Shown in pieces: positions 10,711 to 29,062 of a stretch of 64,000 bases of DNA (position 1 is its first letter; each line of letters starts with the position of its first letter). The stretch comes from Escherichia phage vB_EcoM_G29: sequence record MK327940.1; one strand, written 5' to 3'. The position numbers were made by a program, and so were the translations under genes. The notes under the pieces were generated by a model. It was given only the letters and a program-made list of their open reading frames with translations, did not search any database and was not told the DNA's origin.

Positions 10711-10735
10711 AGGGACCTTTCGGTCCCTTTTTATT
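10711..10735. terminator. bidirectional intrinsic terminator between gene 24 and rnlB
   Basis: agggacc-tttc-ggtccct flanked by A-run upstream and T-run downstream. Confidence 0.7.
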
Positions 10736-11739
10736 TAACTTACCAATTCAATCCAAGCCGGACGAAGTACATCTTGTACCATTTTAACTAATTCCTTCTT
10801 AATCAAAGAAGGATTATCCGCTTGAGTTAGAGTAATACCTTCACGAGAAGTTTCTTCCAAAATATCTTGAACCGTTAGTCCCATCACCTTTCCAAAATCT
10901 TTTGGACCAATTTCACCAATTTTAGAAATAACGTTATTTACTCGGTTCAGTGTAACATAACAAGCTAAAATTCCCAGCAATTTATTATCAGCTTCTGACA
11001 ACTCAACTTTAGCTTTAATAGGCTTATCAGACTTTTTCTTTTCACTAAATTTAGAGTTCTTGCATTTGATGGCTACACGATTGCGATTAGGCAGCCAAGA
11101 AGGATAACAAGGTTTCAATACATATCCTTCAGCGGTAAATACTTCGCCTTTTGCTTCAGCATTCCAAACGCATTTATTTGCATCAACTAATCCAGCATGG
11201 TCTACCGTAAAATTATAATCCTGTACGACAGAATCTAAATCATTTGGCAATTTAATAAGTTCTTCAAATTTACCACGACCTAAAAGTGGAGCCATTTTAA
11301 ATTTAAATGTATTACAGAATGATTCCATCATATAATCATCGACATAAATTACATCACCACTTTCTGTAGTAACAATAATGTCAAATACATAAAAATCTTT
11401 ATCACCATAATCGACATTCTTCTGAATGCCAGGTCCGGCGAATTCACCAAAGACTTGATAAGATACAACCGCTGAAGTTTCCATAATATCTTGTACTGCT
11501 TTAATGGAATCAGCGTAATTCTTCAAAATAATTTCATACCCAAAGAAATCTTCAGCAGGAAGAATAGGACCAGTTCGTTTAGCACAAGTTACTTTATCAC
11601 GCTCAATAATCAATGAGAAATTTGTGCCGTGAATCTTTTCACGAGCTACCCATTCGCCGCCAGTCAATCCTAAACTGTAAAGTTTTTCAATAAATTTAGA
11701 GTTGTAATGATTTTCAAGACTGCTATACTTTTTAAACAT
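10735..11739 (-). CDS. rnlB: RNA ligase 2 (334 aa)
   Basis: 334-aa ORF immediately downstream of gene 24 on opposite strand, as T4 rnlB (24.1). Confidence 0.85.
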
Positions 11740-12295: not shown

Positions 12296-12316
12296 AAAGG
12301 GGCCGAAGCCCCTTAT
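12296..12316 (-). terminator. intrinsic terminator after hoc
   Basis: Minus strand: aagggg-cuucg-gcccctt hairpin followed by U-rich tract, 3 nt after hoc stop. Confidence 0.6.
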
Positions 12317-12318
12317 GA

Positions 12319-13792
12319 TTATGGATAGGTATAGATGATACCAGTTTCTAAAGCAGTTTTATGAATGATGTATCCATTGCGTGATTCTTGAACATCAACT
12401 TCTGGATAGTCTTTCATCATCTTCTGAAGAGTGTAACGATGCAGGTAGTATTTACTATCTGGATCTTCAGTTTTCCAATCTTTACCTTCTTCGGTCATTT
12501 TTTGGATTTCATCCATAACCCACCAACCGCACCAGATATAAGCTGAAGTGCGATGTGGAAGAGGATGAACATAAGGCAATTCACCTTCTGGTTCCGGAGC
12601 AACTTTATCAGTTACCTGAACTTGGCCTGTTGCTTTAACTGTTTTACTATCATAGTCGGTTGCTGTAACGGTTGCAGTAACTTCAATAGTTTGACTTCCA
12701 ATAGATGATGTATCAACCGTGTATACATTAGTTGATTCTTCTACAGGAGAAGAATCTTTCTTCCATGAATATTCGATTTGTGCTTCTTCTGGAGCATCCG
12801 TAACATTAGCAGTAAATGTAGCCGAAGCATCTTGCTGAACGTTAATAGAAGGAGGAGTCAATGTAACCTGTGGATTCATTGTCTTCTTATTAACTGTTAA
12901 TGATACTTCATTAGAAGTAACTTCCTTTTCATTGTAATTTTCAGCCGTTACTTGGGCTACGCATTTAATTCTTTTTACTCCACTTGTAGTTGGAGTATAG
13001 TTAAATGTAGAGTTAGTTTCTCCACCAATTTGAGAATCATCTACATACCATTTATATGTAGCAGACGCTCCATCAGGTTGAGAAACCAAGGCAGCAGTAA
13101 ATTGAACTGGGGTTCCAATTACTCCAGCTGGAGGACTATCAGGAGTTACTGCCAAGGTAGTTGTCTGCGTCTTTTTATTAACAGTCAGTGACACTTCATT
13201 GGAAGTAACTTCCTTTGTATCATAATCTGTCGCGGTTACTTGAGCTACGCACTTAATTGTTTTAACTCCGCTTGCGTCAGGAGTGTAATTGAATGTAGTG
13301 CTAGTTGCTTCGCCCACAGGAGAACCGTCAACGTACCATTGATACGTAGCGTTTGCACCTGATGGCTGTGAAGCTAAGGCAGCCAACGTACCATTGATAC
13401 GTAGCGTTTGCACCTGATGGCTGTGAAGCTAAGGCAGCGGTAAATTCAATTGGAGTTCCAATCACTCCAGCATCAGGGCTACCAGGAGTTACTGCCAAAG
13501 TAGTTGTTTGTGTCTTATTTTGAACTGTGATAGTTGTACTAATTTCAGCTGTTTCAGGTTCAGATTCTGCAACTTGATTGGTTGCAACTACTTTAATAGT
13601 CTTTTGACCGGCAGGTCCTTTTAGTACATAACTAAAAGTTGCTGACGTTTCTTCCTGTGGAGCGTCGTCTACAGTCCAAGCATATGTAATAGGTCCATCT
13701 CCAGTTTGACCACTGGGTGTAGCAGTAAACTGCTGAGTCTGATCTATAACTCCAGTAGGTGTTTTAGGAGTTATATCAACTGTAAAAGCCAT
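12319..13792 (-). pseudogene. hoc: hoc (highly immunogenic outer capsid protein) disrupted by a 55-bp tandem duplication; split into track ORFs 13328-13792 and 12319-13413
   Basis: Tandem Ig-like repeats (TLAVTP...ATYQWYV) plus C-terminal capsid-binding region recalled from T4 Hoc; the peptide ALASQPSGANATYQWYV is encoded twice in different frames; the second ORF starts at GTG with no RBS. Confidence 0.85.
13329..13438. repeat. perfect 55-bp direct tandem duplication (2 copies: 13329-13383 and 13384-13438) inside hoc
   Basis: Both copies read caacgtaccattgatacgtagcgtttgcacctgatggctgtgaagctaaggcagc, identical base for base. Confidence 0.95.
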
Positions 13793-13801
13793 AAGTTATC
13801 C

Positions 13802-14482
13802 TTATTTTAATGTTACGAAAGAAGAATTACGTGTTTCACGAATTAGAACTGATCCGTCACGATTAATGTAGTAAATTAAGCTAAATAAAGTTTGGTGTGC
13901 CGACGCATGTTCAAAACTAGTTGGGTGAGATTTCCAATCTGGGGTTTCAGCAATCCATTGATAAATCCACCAAGGAACAGTGCAGAATCCTGGATTTTTT
14001 CCAATCAGCTGAAGATTCGGACTAAAGTTTTCCGGAAGAGTAAATACAGACGGCTTTTCAGATTCAATAATCTCAGCTACAGCCTGTTCGAATTTTTCTT
14101 CAACAAAAGGAGTATCTTCAATTAAAACAGTGGTATTTTCAGGAATTTTATCCGTTTCTACTACTTCAATTTTAATGTCAGATTTAACCGGAGAATCAAT
14201 CAGAAGTGCTGCCTCTGGATTGACTTCTTCATCGTCATATTTTAATCCGTCTGCGGCATCAGCAGCATCAATTAAGTCTTTAATAGATAACCCATCAGTC
14301 TCTGGCATAGGTTCACTAGCGAGCTTCTGGAGAGCTTCTTCAATATCATTAACGATATTATCAAAAGATTTATTCTTTTTGACCTTTATACCAAACTGTT
14401 CAGCATATTCAGCTAATTTAGCTTTAGCTTCTTTATTATCATCAAGAGCCTTCAGCTCTGCAATATAATCTTTATCTATCAT
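13802..14482 (-). CDS. inh: Inh, inhibitor of prohead protease gp21 (226 aa)
   Basis: 226-aa ORF matching T4 inh length and position next to hoc. Confidence 0.8.
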   Translation of the reverse strand: MIDKDYIAELKALDDNKEAKAKLAEYAEQFGIKVKKNKSFDNIVNDIEEALQKLASEPMPETDGLSIKDLIDAADAADGLKYDDEEVNPEAALLIDSPVKSDIKIEVVETDKIPENTTVLIEDTPFVEEKFEQAVAEIIESEKPSVFTLPENFSPNLQLIGKNPGFCTVPWWIYQWIAETPDWKSHPTSFEHASAHQTLFSLIYYINRDGSVLIRETRNSSFVTLK

Positions 14483-14495
14483 AATATTTCCTCAG

Positions 14496-14503
14496 TATAA
14501 ATA
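14496..14503 (+). promoter_or_regulatory. late promoter TATAAATA for uvsW
   Basis: Exact TATAAATA 30 nt upstream of uvsW ATG. Confidence 0.6.
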
Positions 14504-14532
14504 TAGATATATTTATTACATGGTATTTAGAC

Positions 14533-16044
14533 ATGACTGACATTAAAGTACATTTTTATGATTTTAGTCACGTGAGAATTGATTGCGAAGAAAGTACATT
14601 TCATGAACTCCGTGATTTCTTTAGCTTTGAAGCTGATGGGTATCGTTTTAATCCGAAGTACAAATATGGCCACTGGGATGGACGAATTCGTCTTTTAGAT
14701 TATAATCGCCTTCTTCCATTCGGTTTAGTCGGGCAAATTAAAAAGTTCTGCGATAACTTTGGCTATAAAGCCTGGATTGACCCACAGATTAACGAAAAAG
14801 AAGAATTATCAAGAAAAGATTTTGATGAATGGCTTTCTAAATTAGAAATCTATTCAGGAAATAAAAGAATTGAACCACACTGGTATCAAAAAGATGCAGT
14901 GTTCGAAGGATTAGTTAATCGTCGTAGAATTCTTAATCTTCCAACATCCGCTGGTAAATCTTTAATTCAAGCTTTGCTTGCGCGATATTATTTGGAAAAT
15001 TATGAAGGTAAAATTCTTATCATTGTTCCAACAACTGCTTTAACAACTCAGATGGCTGATGACTTTGTTGATTATCGTTTATTCAGTCATGCAATGATAA
15101 AGAAAATCGGTGGTGGAGCATCAAAAGATGATAAATATAAAAATGATGCACCAGTCGTTGTTGGTACATGGCAAACTGTAGTAAAACAACCGAAAGAATG
15201 GTTCTCACAGTTTGGAATGATGATGAATGATGAATGCCATCTTGCTACAGGAAAAAGTATTTCATCTATCATATCAGGTTTAAATAACTGCATGTTCAAA
15301 TTTGGTCTATCTGGTTCATTACGTGATGGCAAAGCCAATATCATGCAGTATGTTGGAATGTTTGGTGAAATATTTAAGCCAGTAACGACTTCTAAGTTAA
15401 TGGAAGATGGACAAGTAACTGAGCTAAAAATTAATAGTATTTTTCTTCGCTATCCCGATGAGTTCACTACTAAATTAAAGGGAAAAACTTATCAAGAAGA
15501 AATAAAAATTATTACGGGGCTTAGTAAAAGAAATAAATGGATCGCTAAATTGGCTATTAAGCTTGCACAAAAAGATGAAAACGCTTTTGTCATGTTTAAA
15601 CATGTATCACATGGTAAAGCTATTTTCGATTTAATTAAAAATGAATACGATAAAGTTTATTACGTATCAGGGGAAGTTGATACCGAAACCCGCAATATAA
15701 TGAAAACCTTAGCTGAAAATGGTAAAGGAATAATTATAGTAGCTAGTTATGGTGTATTTTCTACTGGTATTTCAGTTAAAAATCTGCATCACGTTGTTTT
15801 AGCGCACGGTGTTAAATCAAAAATCATTGTATTACAAACAATCGGTCGTGTATTACGTAAGCATGGTTCTAAAACAATCGCAACAGTCTGGGACCTCATA
15901 GATGACTGTGGTGTCAAGCCAAAATCTGCTAATACTAAAAAGAAATATGTTCACTTGAACTATCTTTTAAAACACGGCATTGATCGTATTCAGCGCTACG
16001 CAGATGAAAAATTTAATTACGTAATGAAAACAGTTAATTTATAA
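14533..16044 (+). CDS. uvsW: UvsW DNA/RNA-DNA helicase (503 aa)
   Basis: Walker A (PTSAGKS) and DECH box; T4 uvsW length and position; TATAAATA upstream. Confidence 0.95.
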   Translation: MTDIKVHFYDFSHVRIDCEESTFHELRDFFSFEADGYRFNPKYKYGHWDGRIRLLDYNRLLPFGLVGQIKKFCDNFGYKAWIDPQINEKEELSRKDFDEWLSKLEIYSGNKRIEPHWYQKDAVFEGLVNRRRILNLPTSAGKSLIQALLARYYLENYEGKILIIVPTTALTTQMADDFVDYRLFSHAMIKKIGGGASKDDKYKNDAPVVVGTWQTVVKQPKEWFSQFGMMMNDECHLATGKSISSIISGLNNCMFKFGLSGSLRDGKANIMQYVGMFGEIFKPVTTSKLMEDGQVTELKINSIFLRYPDEFTTKLKGKTYQEEIKIITGLSKRNKWIAKLAIKLAQKDENAFVMFKHVSHGKAIFDLIKNEYDKVYYVSGEVDTETRNIMKTLAENGKGIIIVASYGVFSTGISVKNLHHVVLAHGVKSKIIVLQTIGRVLRKHGSKTIATVWDLIDDCGVKPKSANTKKKYVHLNYLLKHGIDRIQRYADEKFNYVMKTVNL

Positions 16045-24896: not shown

Positions 24897-24950
24897 TCCT
24901 CATGTTATGTCAGTAAGACTACTATAACACAACACGAGGGACTTGTAAAC
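24897..24950. repeat. 54-bp dispersed repeat copy 1 (early promoter plus leader); copy 2 at 40821-40874
   Basis: 53 of 54 nt identical (tcctcatgttatgtcagtaagactact[a/g]taacacaacacgagggacttgtaaac). Confidence 0.9.
24921..24950 (-). promoter_or_regulatory. early promoter (GTTTAC-N18-TATAGT) for the alt.-3-position ORF
   Basis: Minus strand GTTTAC overlapping the stop of the Alt paralog, TATAGT 18 nt downstream, leader with GAGG before ATG. Confidence 0.6.
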
Positions 24951-27007
24951 TACATCTTGAACTTTTTAGACATTCCGTTGATGTTAACCAAAGAAGCTAA
25001 GATTTGAGAAACTTCGTTTTCCTCTTCTTTTGATTCTTCTACAAGGAATTGATTAAATCCAGCCATTGGACGAACTTCACCAGTTTCCATTAGATGGTCG
25101 CCATCATATACTGATTCTTCTAATTGTTCAGAAGGAGGAACGATTGTACCTTCGATTAGATACTTGTTATAAGCAGTTTCTTTCATAAAGTAAGTACTTA
25201 CTTTATTAATCTTCAGTAAAATTCCACGTGGTAGAATAACTTCAGCTTCTGACGGAAATCCTGATAAATGACCCGGAACGATAACTTTGATTCGCTCAGC
25301 TCCTTTAATTACCATACCCACGCTAGTTTCAGCATCTTCATTAGCATATGTAGAATGACTACCCATATGCATCAAATCTTCTGCATCAACGGAACCTTCT
25401 CCTTCACCAGAAAATACTGCGCCGGAATCATCTAGAGCCATATAGTTTTTACCATGCTCACCGAAGATATTTGGTTTAAGCGATGTGGATACGAAGTTCT
25501 TGAAATAGAACATTTTATTTTCAATGTTATGACGCAAAGTTTTAAAGGTAACTTCTTGTCCACGGTAAAGTGTAGTTCCTGGAGGAAGAACTGAACCTTT
25601 AGCGAATGCAGAATCAAGCGTCTCAATATGTTTAATAGCTCGTTCCATATATTCTTCACGGGTAGAATCTGGTTTACCCAAAAGGAACGAGTTCATTTCA
25701 ACATATGAATCTGCACAATAATCTTCAATTACATCAGATTCAGCTTGAGTTAATCCTTTTGGAGTTACTTCAGTGCTTGCGTATTCATATGCCTGAGCAG
25801 CAGATTCATTAATCAATTTATAAATGCCATTCATGACAAATTGAATAATAGCTGTCTTTTCATCTGGCGTAGCTTTAGAACCTTTAACCAAATCATTGAT
25901 AATTTTCTTAATAACATCAAAGCTATTAGAAATATTAATATCAGCAAGATCGCTTAAAATTTTATCAGTCTTATAATCAAAGAATTCTTTATTCTTTAAA
26001 TATTCTTGAGAACCTTGATATGTTATATCGCTCTGTAACTTGATAGATGGATCACGTAAACGTGCATGGGCTAATGCAATATGATTTCGGAAGCTTTCGA
26101 GTTCATAATCACTAGATTTAAAACGAGAAGCGCTTCTCATACCGCCTATAGCTCCTTTGCTGAAGTTTGAACCAATTTGAATAACGCCAGAGTTCATTGG
26201 TCCTTCTGCTTTATACACCGGAACTTTAGATTCAAACTCTTGATATTTCTTAGCAGCGAAGCTATCACCCTGAAGTGAAGCATCAACAGTAGAATATTGA
26301 GCTTGTGCTGCTAATCGACGACTAATTTTAGTTTTCTGAATAACAGCTTGGTCCGTGCGCTTATCATTTTCTAAAGCAATAGAAGCAGCAACAGCAACAG
26401 CTTTAGGAACAGCATTACCTGTTTTAACATCTACATAAACATCACCAACCTTTGATTCAACTTTTGTGAATAACTCAGTTGAAATAGGAGGTACACCTGG
26501 AATGTCTTCTAAATTGGCATTTTTACGATAAACCATAATATATGCGTACTTTTTATCATAATCCCAGATTTCCTTTAAAAGAACATATCGACCTGCTCCT
26601 TTAGTACGTACTAAACGGTCAGCAATAACTTGCATTTGACGAGCAGCGCCATTTGTTTTACTCTTTAGTACGCGGAATAAGCATGCATCAATTTTATACT
26701 GTTTCATTGTTTGAAGAGCAGTATCAAAAACAGCGTTAATGACGCCAATTGGATTTCCACCCAAGTTTCTAAGTTTAACCAGTGATAATTTCTCGTTGAC
26801 ACCTATCATTACGATATGCATCATTTTATCGCCCGGCTTAACGTTTTTATTTGTATCACCTCCAGAGGTGTATGTACAAAATCTAAATCCAGGAAGCACG
26901 CTTTCTTCGCCGGCTTGAATAGCAAAAATTTGAGGTATTTTATGCTTAGGATTTAAGTTAACAACCGGCGCCGAAGCGCCGTCAAATAATTCTGTAATAA
27001 GTTCCAT
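24950..27007 (-). CDS. Alt-like ADP-ribosyltransferase paralog (685 aa)
   Basis: Shares the alt N-terminus (MELITELFD...CTYTSGGDTN...KIDAC...GRYVLLKE.WDYDKKYAY) and R / S-T-S / E-x-E ART motifs (LYRGQ, FVSTSL, SEAEVILPRG); central region divergent. Confidence 0.85.
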   Translation of the reverse strand: MELITELFDGASAPVVNLNPKHKIPQIFAIQAGEESVLPGFRFCTYTSGGDTNKNVKPGDKMMHIVMIGVNEKLSLVKLRNLGGNPIGVINAVFDTALQTMKQYKIDACLFRVLKSKTNGAARQMQVIADRLVRTKGAGRYVLLKEIWDYDKKYAYIMVYRKNANLEDIPGVPPISTELFTKVESKVGDVYVDVKTGNAVPKAVAVAASIALENDKRTDQAVIQKTKISRRLAAQAQYSTVDASLQGDSFAAKKYQEFESKVPVYKAEGPMNSGVIQIGSNFSKGAIGGMRSASRFKSSDYELESFRNHIALAHARLRDPSIKLQSDITYQGSQEYLKNKEFFDYKTDKILSDLADINISNSFDVIKKIINDLVKGSKATPDEKTAIIQFVMNGIYKLINESAAQAYEYASTEVTPKGLTQAESDVIEDYCADSYVEMNSFLLGKPDSTREEYMERAIKHIETLDSAFAKGSVLPPGTTLYRGQEVTFKTLRHNIENKMFYFKNFVSTSLKPNIFGEHGKNYMALDDSGAVFSGEGEGSVDAEDLMHMGSHSTYANEDAETSVGMVIKGAERIKVIVPGHLSGFPSEAEVILPRGILLKINKVSTYFMKETAYNKYLIEGTIVPPSEQLEESVYDGDHLMETGEVRPMAGFNQFLVEESKEEENEVSQILASLVNINGMSKKFKM

Positions 27008-27010
27008 GAT

Positions 27011-29062
27011 TTATCCTTGAACGAACTTGTAAGGCATGTTTGTAATATCTATGCAAGACGCAATAATTCCAAGAGATGATTCTACTTTCTGTTTAACATT
27101 TGATGAAACAAATGATGCAAAGTCAACTCTATCTTCTATATCACCTGTCATTGTAACTACTTCGCCGGTTTCCATTAAACGGTCACCGTCATAAATTACT
27201 GATTCGGTGAGTTCTTCGGTGGTCATAACTTCAGCTTGAATAAGCTTGTTGTTAGTTTTGACTGTTCCATCATTGTAAGATGCATCAGTTATTTTATTAA
27301 CTTTGACCATTAATCCACGTGGCAAAATGACTTCCATTTCATTTGAAGGCGCTAAACTTCCACCGGGTAAAACAACATTGACTTTATCAGCCCCAGTAAT
27401 AACCCATCCAATTCCGACTAAATTATCGCTAGAATTAACAAGCCCTTCATCATTTTTATCGATAGAAATGTTTAGACGCTTTTCATCTGGTAAAACACCA
27501 ACAGCTGAATCAGTCATCCAAGTACCAAAAATGTTTGGATATAATGATGTTGATACAAAATTTCTAAAATAAAAAACTCGATTTTTTACCATTGCTTCGT
27601 ATATTGAAGGTAACATTCGTTGTGAACGATACAAAGTAATACCTTTTGGTAATCGTTCACCATTTTTAAAGGCTGAATCTAAATTATCAATAGCTTTTTC
27701 TATGTCAGATGCTGTCAAAATACTTGTACGCTCATCTGGATTATATAATCCCAAAAGAGCATTATTTATGTCTACATATCCTGAACCTACGTATTCACGA
27801 ATTCCGCGTTTTTGTGCTGGTGTGTATTTAGATGAATCTTTATTTTCGACTATAGGATGTAATGACCATCCAGCTGTAAGAGCATATCCACGTAATTCTC
27901 TTCGAATAATCTTTGTTTTTATTGCATTCCAAGAATTTTGTACTAACTCATTTGCAGCATCTTGGTTTAAATGCGAATGTTTGTTAATATTTCTTTCAAA
28001 CCAAGCACCTTTATATTTTTCTAAAGTATTATCGACGATAGAAGCAATAGTTTCTAAAGTTTTTATTGAAGTAATAGATTCTTTTCGTAATTTTTCTAAA
28101 GCTTTATTTTTTATTTCTGCATTAATAATGGATTCTTTATCTTCAGGAATTATAGAAGCTTCTCTGAATGCCATCCCAGCTGTAACACTGCTAAGAGCAT
28201 TCTCTAGTGCAAATCCTGAAGTAGAAATTACCGTTAATTCATTAGAATCAGAAATTAAAGGCGCATCAGCGGGTTTATTTAATTCTGCTGCTGAAGCCTC
28301 AAATTTTTGAAACATCGGTGTTTCAAATCTAGAAGATTCCAATGACTGACTTTGTGCAATTGCTCTACGGGAAATTTTAACTTTAACGATTACAGCTTGG
28401 TCAGAACGTTTATCATTTTCTTGTGCAATAGATGCTGCAATTGCCTCATTTTTGGTTACTTGAGCTCCGGTATCTTTATTGATATAAACATCACCGACCT
28501 TCGATTCAACTTTAGTAAAGAGCTCGGTACTAATTTCCGGAACTCCTGGAATGTCTTCTAGTGATACATTTTTGCGATGTATAAGAATATATGCATACTT
28601 TTTATCATAATCCCAGAGTTCCTTAAGAAGGACGTATCTGCCACCTGAACGACTACGGATAAGTCTATCAGCAATAACTTGAATTTGTCGAGCTTGATCA
28701 GCGGTTTTAGACTTAAGAATACGAAGCATACAAGCATCAATTTTATACTGACGCATTGTTTGCATTGCAACAGTAAAAACTGAATTGATATAATTAATTG
28801 GGCTTGGACCAAGACCTTTTAATTTAGCAATTGAACCTTTAGCGGTTAATGTAAAAGGAACAATATGCATCATTTTATCGCCCATTTTTAAATCGCGATT
28901 AGTATCACCTCCAGATGTATAGGTACATAAACGAAAGCCTGGTTGTTCAATTGCATCATCAACATGAACTGAAAAAATTTGCGGTATTTTCTTCTTTGGA
29001 TTTAAGTTTGTAATCGGAAGAGTAGTATCTTCGTCAAATAATTCTGTAATAAGTTCCATCAT
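27011..29062 (-). CDS. alt: Alt ADP-ribosyltransferase, head-packaged (683 aa)
   Basis: 683-aa ORF adjacent to gene 30 as in T4; ART motifs LYRSQ, FVSTSL, NEMEVILPRG; late TATAAATA upstream. Confidence 0.9.
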   Translation of the reverse strand: MMELITELFDEDTTLPITNLNPKKKIPQIFSVHVDDAIEQPGFRLCTYTSGGDTNRDLKMGDKMMHIVPFTLTAKGSIAKLKGLGPSPINYINSVFTVAMQTMRQYKIDACMLRILKSKTADQARQIQVIADRLIRSRSGGRYVLLKELWDYDKKYAYILIHRKNVSLEDIPGVPEISTELFTKVESKVGDVYINKDTGAQVTKNEAIAASIAQENDKRSDQAVIVKVKISRRAIAQSQSLESSRFETPMFQKFEASAAELNKPADAPLISDSNELTVISTSGFALENALSSVTAGMAFREASIIPEDKESIINAEIKNKALEKLRKESITSIKTLETIASIVDNTLEKYKGAWFERNINKHSHLNQDAANELVQNSWNAIKTKIIRRELRGYALTAGWSLHPIVENKDSSKYTPAQKRGIREYVGSGYVDINNALLGLYNPDERTSILTASDIEKAIDNLDSAFKNGERLPKGITLYRSQRMLPSIYEAMVKNRVFYFRNFVSTSLYPNIFGTWMTDSAVGVLPDEKRLNISIDKNDEGLVNSSDNLVGIGWVITGADKVNVVLPGGSLAPSNEMEVILPRGLMVKVNKITDASYNDGTVKTNNKLIQAEVMTTEELTESVIYDGDRLMETGEVVTMTGDIEDRVDFASFVSSNVKQKVESSLGIIASCIDITNMPYKFVQG

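Follow-up and report, generated by a model that had tools for sequence, protein, structure and literature searches.

Four Tandem Immunoglobulin-Like Domains in the Predicted Hoc Protein of Escherichia Phage vB_EcoM_G29 and a Probable Assembly Artifact within Its Gene

We consider it very likely that the undisrupted hoc gene (highly immunogenic outer capsid protein) of Escherichia phage vB_EcoM_G29 encodes a Tequatrovirus Hoc with four tandem immunoglobulin (Ig)-like domains that precede the conserved C-terminal domain, and that this form belongs to an old and common allele class. The gene lies on the minus strand at positions 12319–13792 of the 64,000-nucleotide stretch of sequence record MK327940.1 that we analyzed (hereafter, the window). 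As given, its 1474 nt are interrupted by a frameshift, leaving a 154-aa open reading frame (ORF) at 13328–13792 and a 364-aa ORF at 12319–13413, and no unbroken frame joins the Ig domains and the capsid-binding domain. Such a frame is present once one copy of a 55-bp tandem duplication is deleted, in which case the gene measures 1419 nt and encodes 472 aa. It is also present in MK327945.1 (vB_EcoM_G4500), where hoc is an intact 1419-nt coding sequence (CDS; QBO65873.1, a 472-aa "PKD domain protein") to which the repaired gene is 100% identical.

Identity and Domain Architecture of the Repaired Protein

The assignment to Hoc is based on the ORFs, the repaired frame, and homology. The repaired protein matches T4 Hoc with E = 5e-221 and PHROG 1149 ("Hoc-like head decoration") with E = 4e-139, and its gene occupies the genomic slot expected of hoc. 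On one flank is an inh homolog, a 226-aa ORF at 13802–14482, and on the other are small ORFs and then an RNA ligase gene at 10735–11739. The gene order rnlB–24.2–24.3–hoc–inh–uvsW is the same as in the T4 (NC_000866) and G4500 annotations; within the late capsid region, hoc lies downstream of inh and is itself followed downstream by 24.3, 24.2, and rnlB. Just 3' of the hoc stop codon there is an intrinsic terminator hairpin on the minus strand (AGGGGC-TTCG-GCCCCT; 12298–12313) followed by a T-rich run, and MK327945.1 annotates a terminator at the matching position downstream of hoc. At the opposite end of the gene, a Shine-Dalgarno-like AAGGA (13799–13803, minus strand) lies 6 nt 5' of the hoc ATG and overlaps the inh stop codon; it may act as the ribosome-binding site. 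Farther along, uvsW (14533–16044) comes directly after inh, and the interval between them (14483–14532) is devoid of segE, the homing-endonuclease gene that T4 carries between inh and uvsW (NC_000866, 112057–112674).

T4 Hoc is a protein of 376 aa (PDB 5vf3 chain Z) encoded by a CDS of 1131 nt (NC_000866). Residues 1–124 of the repaired protein align to T4 residues 1–124, and residues 189–472 align to T4 residues 93–376; thus, the two proteins differ by exactly one 96-aa module. The first-pass annotation of this DNA had proposed that the repaired protein, at 472 aa, carries one module more than T4 Hoc, and the single 96-aa gap in the alignment bears this out, T4 having one module fewer.

All of the modules are encoded on the minus strand. 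Module M1 (aa 1–92; 13517–13792) is Ig-like and corresponds to T4 Hoc domain 1, to which it shows 84.8% nucleotide identity. It is followed by two domain-2-like modules, M2 (aa 93–188 of the repaired protein; 13174–13516, a span that holds the 55-bp duplication) and M3 (aa 189–284; 12886–13173). We distinguish two types of this module by a four-site haplotype, PEAA in type A and QGES in type B; M2 is an A-type copy and M3 is of type B. M2 is the module that is extra relative to T4, whereas M3 is the closer counterpart of T4 domain 2, which has 88.9% nucleotide identity to M3 versus 77.8% to M2. On this comparison, the single domain-2 module of T4 is mostly B-type. Module M4 (aa 285–380; 12598–12885) is Ig-like, with an Ig_3/I-set match at residues 289–374, and corresponds to T4 domain 3. 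The last part of the protein is the capsid-binding domain at the C terminus (aa 381–472; 12322–12597), which corresponds to T4 domain 4 with 95% nucleotide identity and is near-identical to T4 residues 285–376. The alignment of residues 377–472 with T4 residues 281–376 is ungapped and shows few substitutions, and PHROG 21694 and 14282, both Hoc-like C-terminal families, match the domain (E = 1e-41).

Pairwise BLASTP comparisons indicate that M1 through M4 are all homologous and that the C-terminal domain shows no relation to any of these. M2 and M3 are by far the closest pair, with 77% protein identity (E = 5e-55), and the remaining pairs are 27–40% identical (E between 5e-10 and 2e-15). A motif previously quoted for every module (ATY[QK]WYV.D...VK.IKCVAQVTA...EVTSNEVSLTVNKKT) describes M2 and M3 well and does not extend to M1 and M4, whose identity to M2 and M3 is within this 27–40% range. 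Pfam matches in the repaired protein are to PKD, Ig_2, Ig_3, and I-set. An AlphaFold2 model built with 42 homologs folds into four beta-sandwich domains, and its pLDDT averaged by block is approximately 80–96 through residue 378. The top Foldseek matches are chains with four Ig domains (Dscam and Sidekick), with RB49 Hoc (3shs) matching at E = 1.7e-10. In the C-terminal domain, pLDDT is 36–65, a low confidence, and its assignment therefore rests on sequence identity to T4. Given that the T4 alignment, BLASTP, Pfam, AlphaFold2, and Foldseek agree, we conclude that the N-terminal part of the protein is a string of four Ig-like modules, one more than in T4. This upholds the earlier proposal of four tandem modules ahead of the C-terminal domain once 55 bp are removed, for which domain prediction had been suggested as a check.

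The repaired protein thus resembles T4 Hoc in its genomic slot between inh and 24.3/rnlB, in its N-terminal domain, and in its possession of both domain-2-type and domain-3-type Ig modules. It differs in carrying one added 96-aa domain-2-like module, for four Ig domains versus three, and in having two diverged copies of the domain-2 module, the A-type M2 and the B-type M3, where T4 has one. The DNA of the two genes is 78–95% identical, varying by module. A capsid-binding domain joined to a string of Ig domains of variable number is a feature shared with the Hoc of PNJ-9 (PMC11853027), RB49 Hoc (3shs), and the homologs surveyed in PMC10385173. In that survey, some 650 Hoc homologs keep an Ig-like string on a conserved capsid-binding domain, and the number of Ig-like domains ranges from 1 to 10, with examples of 1, 2, and 10 (Fokine et al. 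2023, PMC10385173). The Hoc of PNJ-9 is T4-like and lacks domain 3 (Fu et al. 2024, PMC11853027).

The 55-bp Tandem Duplication

The duplication that breaks the frame consists of copy 1 at 13329–13383, which is extra relative to MK327945.1, and copy 2 at 13384–13438. It shifts the frame, and the upstream ORF accordingly stops at 13328, having encoded 154 aa. The two copies match at 100% (TRF score 220) and constitute the sole tandem repeat scoring at least 60 in the 64 kb. At the borders there is no flanking base of further homology, and the junction reads ...GCTAAGGCAGC|CAACGTACC.... When the window is compared with MK327945.1, the first mismatch falls at window position 13384. Neither MK327945.1 nor any of the best 40 of 678 related records, G4500 and G4507 among them, contains the junction, and a 30-mer across it (GAAGCTAAGGCAGCCAACGTACCATTGATA) has 0 matches in contig collections from viruses, metagenomes, and genomes. 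The extra 55 bp and the broken frame set this copy of hoc apart from its 472-aa relatives among those records. The duplication lies wholly inside M2 (aa 119–137) and does not fall in register with the 288-bp period of the modules. Unequal exchange at the level of modules would add or remove 288 bp and does not account for the 55-bp lesion. The lesion had originally been tied to the module repeat, a connection that its location inside M2, its register, and the lack of flanking homology all contradict.

The length of the duplication is informative. When a circular or permuted genome is assembled at k = 55 by a de Bruijn assembler, the ends of the contig overlap by 55 bases, and if such a contig is rotated untrimmed, the overlap persists as an exact 55-bp tandem duplicate whose location is arbitrary. 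The paper describing G4500 reports Nextera libraries, assembly by SPAdes with a 55-mer, and reordering of T4-like assemblies so that their genes run as in published relatives (Korf et al. 2019, PMC6563267). The duplication in the window has the properties of such a k-mer overlap: it is perfect, its length equals the stated k of 55, its position is arbitrary, and it occurs in a genome of the kind to which the authors gave the T4 gene order by rotation.

A base-by-base comparison shows that the window corresponds to MK327945.1 from record base 96001 and is 100% identical to it except for two indels. One is the extra 55 bp in the hoc gene of the window and the other is 177 bp present only in MK327945.1. 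In the latter record, at approximately 123907–124138, two identical 55-mers bracket CTGTCTCTTATACACATCTCCGAGCCCACGAGAC...ATCTCGTATGCCGTCTTCTGCTTG (Nextera adapter) and poly-A. The 177 extra bases, made up of adapter, poly-A, and the second 55-mer, lie inside an alt-like gene, G4500_00214, whose annotated 741-aa product ("hypothetical protein") includes their translation. At the matching site of the window (27962–28016, within the minus-strand ORF at 27011–29062) there is a clean 683-aa alt-like gene, which is also found in G4507 and other relatives, and no adapter sequence was found in the window. The adapter in MK327945.1 is Nextera read-through, and the insertion as a whole is a contig-end artifact in the public record. 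The pair of 55-mers around the adapter shows that an artifact of the same class exists in the G4500 assembly, although it sits elsewhere, in the alt-like gene, unlike the duplication in the hoc gene of the window. The spacing between hoc and alt in G4507 differs from that in the window by several hundred bases. The alt-like gene is itself one of a tandem pair: the minus-strand ORFs at 24950–27007 and 27011–29062 encode Alt-like ADP-ribosyltransferase paralogs of 685 and 683 aa, with N- and C-terminal parts conserved in both and divergent middles.

On these circumstantial grounds, we think that the 55-bp duplication is probably a re-circularization artifact, that is, a SPAdes k = 55 end overlap that was kept upon rotation. 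The main alternative is a genuine spontaneous mutation that knocks out hoc, gives rise to Hoc-less virions, and could revert by homologous loss of one copy. T4 does not require Hoc, and phage lacking it are viable. If the frameshift were real, the only product would be a 154-aa protein comprising M1 and part of M2 and lacking the capsid anchor, and the virion would be Hoc-less; by eye, no Shine-Dalgarno-like sequence precedes the GTG at 13413, where translation might re-initiate. A genuine knockout would also fit the frameshifted hoc genes of other deposited Tequatrovirus genomes, and the window, free of the adapter artifact of MK327945.1, may derive from independent, cleaner data. We nevertheless regard a genuine mutation as unlikely, if well short of fanciful, and rate the artifact above it because the duplication is as long as the k-mer that the authors reported for their assembler, the borders show no microhomology, neither MK327945.1 nor the 100% identical G4507 nor any collection searched contains the junction, and a second 55-bp scar is documented in MK327945.1.

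Other deposits also have irregular hoc genes. The gene is split into two CDSs in MZ501066.1 (Bas39 FriedrichMiescher, "Hoc part 1 / part 2"), and in MZ234018.1, OR887633.1, and OR757454.1 it is either split or spans 1418 or 1420 bp, 1 bp off 1419 bp. Apparent frameshifts in hoc, whether real or sequencing errors, thus recur in public records. For curation, we suggest that the broken hoc not be taken as biology before it is confirmed in the reads and that the adapter junk carried by MK327945.1 in its alt-like gene be noted.

Prevalence and Age of the Four-Ig Form

The four-Ig Hoc is an ordinary, already cataloged natural variant. A megablast search with hoc returned 678 phage records, the best being vB_EcoM_G4500 and G4507, which are 100% identical to it in two pieces spanning 1419 bp. 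Among the best 40 of these 678 records, which come from phages of E. coli, Shigella, Yersinia, Salmonella, and Hafnia, the match spans exactly 1419 bp in 36 and spans 1418, 1420, 1420, and 1496 bp in the others. Tequatrovirus proteins of 472 aa, annotated as "Hoc-like head decoration" or "PKD domain protein", share the four-Ig, A–B architecture of the repaired Hoc; apart from the identical genes of G4500 and G4507, the DNA of these relatives (e.g., G9062, pSs-1, HP3, and KRT47) is 93–96% identical to that of hoc in the window. The best 120 protein clusters include 78 of 376 aa, 29 of 472 aa, and seven of 568 aa, plus one of 567 aa and one of 570 aa. The length classes step by 96 aa, such that variants differ by whole repeat units, and the length comparison that had been suggested as a check thus finds proteins of 376, 472, and 568 aa side by side. 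Many protein clusters that derive from metagenomes and sequencing runs likewise measure 472 aa. A query consisting of M2 and M3 matched 570 records, and in an evenly spaced sample of 60 of them the two modules were contiguous in 26, or approximately 40%.

Published examples of Hoc proteins with variable numbers of Ig domains (1, 2, 3, or 10) come from more distant phages, and our literature search found no paper on a four-Ig Tequatrovirus Hoc or on polymorphism of three, four, and five domains within the genus. This polymorphism is nonetheless visible in the databases. The discovery value of the present gene is accordingly small, the intact four-Ig Hoc having already been deposited for G4500 and hundreds of relatives and variation in Ig number having been published.

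The divergence between M2 and M3, together with their conservation across many phages, leads us to conclude that the extra module is old and was not recently acquired in this genome. The first-pass annotation had described the DNA of adjacent modules as near-identical, with a period of about 285 bp. The measured spacing is 288 bp, and at this spacing M2 and M3 share only 76% identity; the two longest stretches of exact in-register match are 16 nt at the module start (TTGGCAGTAACTCCTG) and 15 nt near the module end (AAAGGAAGTTACTTC). We therefore find no near-identity of the kind proposed. Were the fourth module the product of a recent unequal crossover here, with near-identical repeats also having caused the 55-bp lesion, one could account for Hoc length classes that differ by exact multiples of 96 aa and for the clear paralogy of M2 and M3. 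This scenario is very improbable in light of the low identity and short exact runs of the two modules, the A-then-B order in 28 of the 29 cluster representatives of 472 aa and the occurrence of the pair in records 82–96% identical, and the location of the 55-bp duplication within a single module and out of its register.

Mis-assembly of a repeat in what is truly a T4-like, 376-aa gene could be entertained given that the MK327945.1 assembly demonstrably holds artifacts, but it deserves next to no credence: M2 and M3 differ at 24% of positions and hence are not a collapsed or expanded repeat, our sample implies that a few hundred records from many laboratories have both modules, and the 472-aa length recurs in clusters derived from metagenomes and sequencing runs. 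A common single mis-assembly behind the 1419-bp genes is likewise unlikely because these genes differ by 5–18% in sequence. The possibility that the extra module is itself an artifact, raised at the outset, is at odds with its presence in MK327945.1 and in hundreds of diverged relatives. The 24% divergence and the wide replication of the module pair lead us to reject both mis-assembly of the extra module and its recent duplication in this genome.

Putative Module Exchange and Predicted Fiber Length

The modules are mosaic, and for this reason no residue is strictly diagnostic of type A or type B: none of the sites reached at least 80% in one type while staying at or below 10% in the other. Within the 376-aa class, the single module carries the A-type haplotype PEAA in 26 cases and the B-type haplotype QGES in 24, in addition to mixtures. 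Phage ASO78A (MZ726795.1), which has a 376-aa Hoc, is a clear example: its single domain-2 module is 99.7% identical in nucleotide sequence to M2 of the window, and the modules beside it are only 88–90% identical to those of the window. The occurrence of both haplotypes in single modules and the mosaic structure of the ASO78A gene indicate that the modules behave as exchangeable cassettes. It is thus plausible, on circumstantial evidence from mosaic patterns in the sequences, that inter-module recombination underlies the variation in domain number across the genus. The idea that recombination between modules generates this variation, which accompanied the original description of the gene, is accordingly plausible at the level of the genus, where 96-aa steps and tandem or alternative modules are seen, and fails as an account of a recent event in this genome.

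In T4, Hoc is a monomer located at the center of the major-capsid-protein hexamers and is dispensable for infectivity (PMC10385173). It forms a fiber of 180 Å that takes part in both adherence to mucin glycans and dispersion of particles (PMC10385173, PMC11853027). We propose that the repaired protein would form a four-Ig fiber anchored by the C-terminal domain that in T4 binds the hexamer center. By analogy with T4, there would be one Hoc per hexamer center with its Ig string directed outward, and the extra module would be expected to lengthen the fiber by about one Ig domain (approximately 4–5 nm). The four-Ig class coexists in the genus with a three-Ig class (376 aa) and a five-Ig class (568 aa), and recombination, both among homologous modules and among co-infecting phages, most likely gave rise to these classes and reassorts them. 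The 55-bp duplication is independent of this module architecture.

Binding sites in mucus adherence have been mapped to individual Hoc domains, and classes of three, four, and five domains built from two exchangeable domain-2 cassettes could bear on the adherence of phages to mucus. A bolder reading joins the two subjects of this study: fiber length in the genus would be an actively shuffled A/B-cassette polymorphism of three, four, or five Ig domains under selection at mucus or host surfaces, and the 55-bp duplication would be a real, reversible OFF switch. We find this combination improbable and give it little weight. The 568–570-aa class of Hoc is found in close relatives such as Escherichia phages UGKSEcP1 and UGKSEcP2 and has five Ig-like modules that include A, B, and a third, B-like copy.
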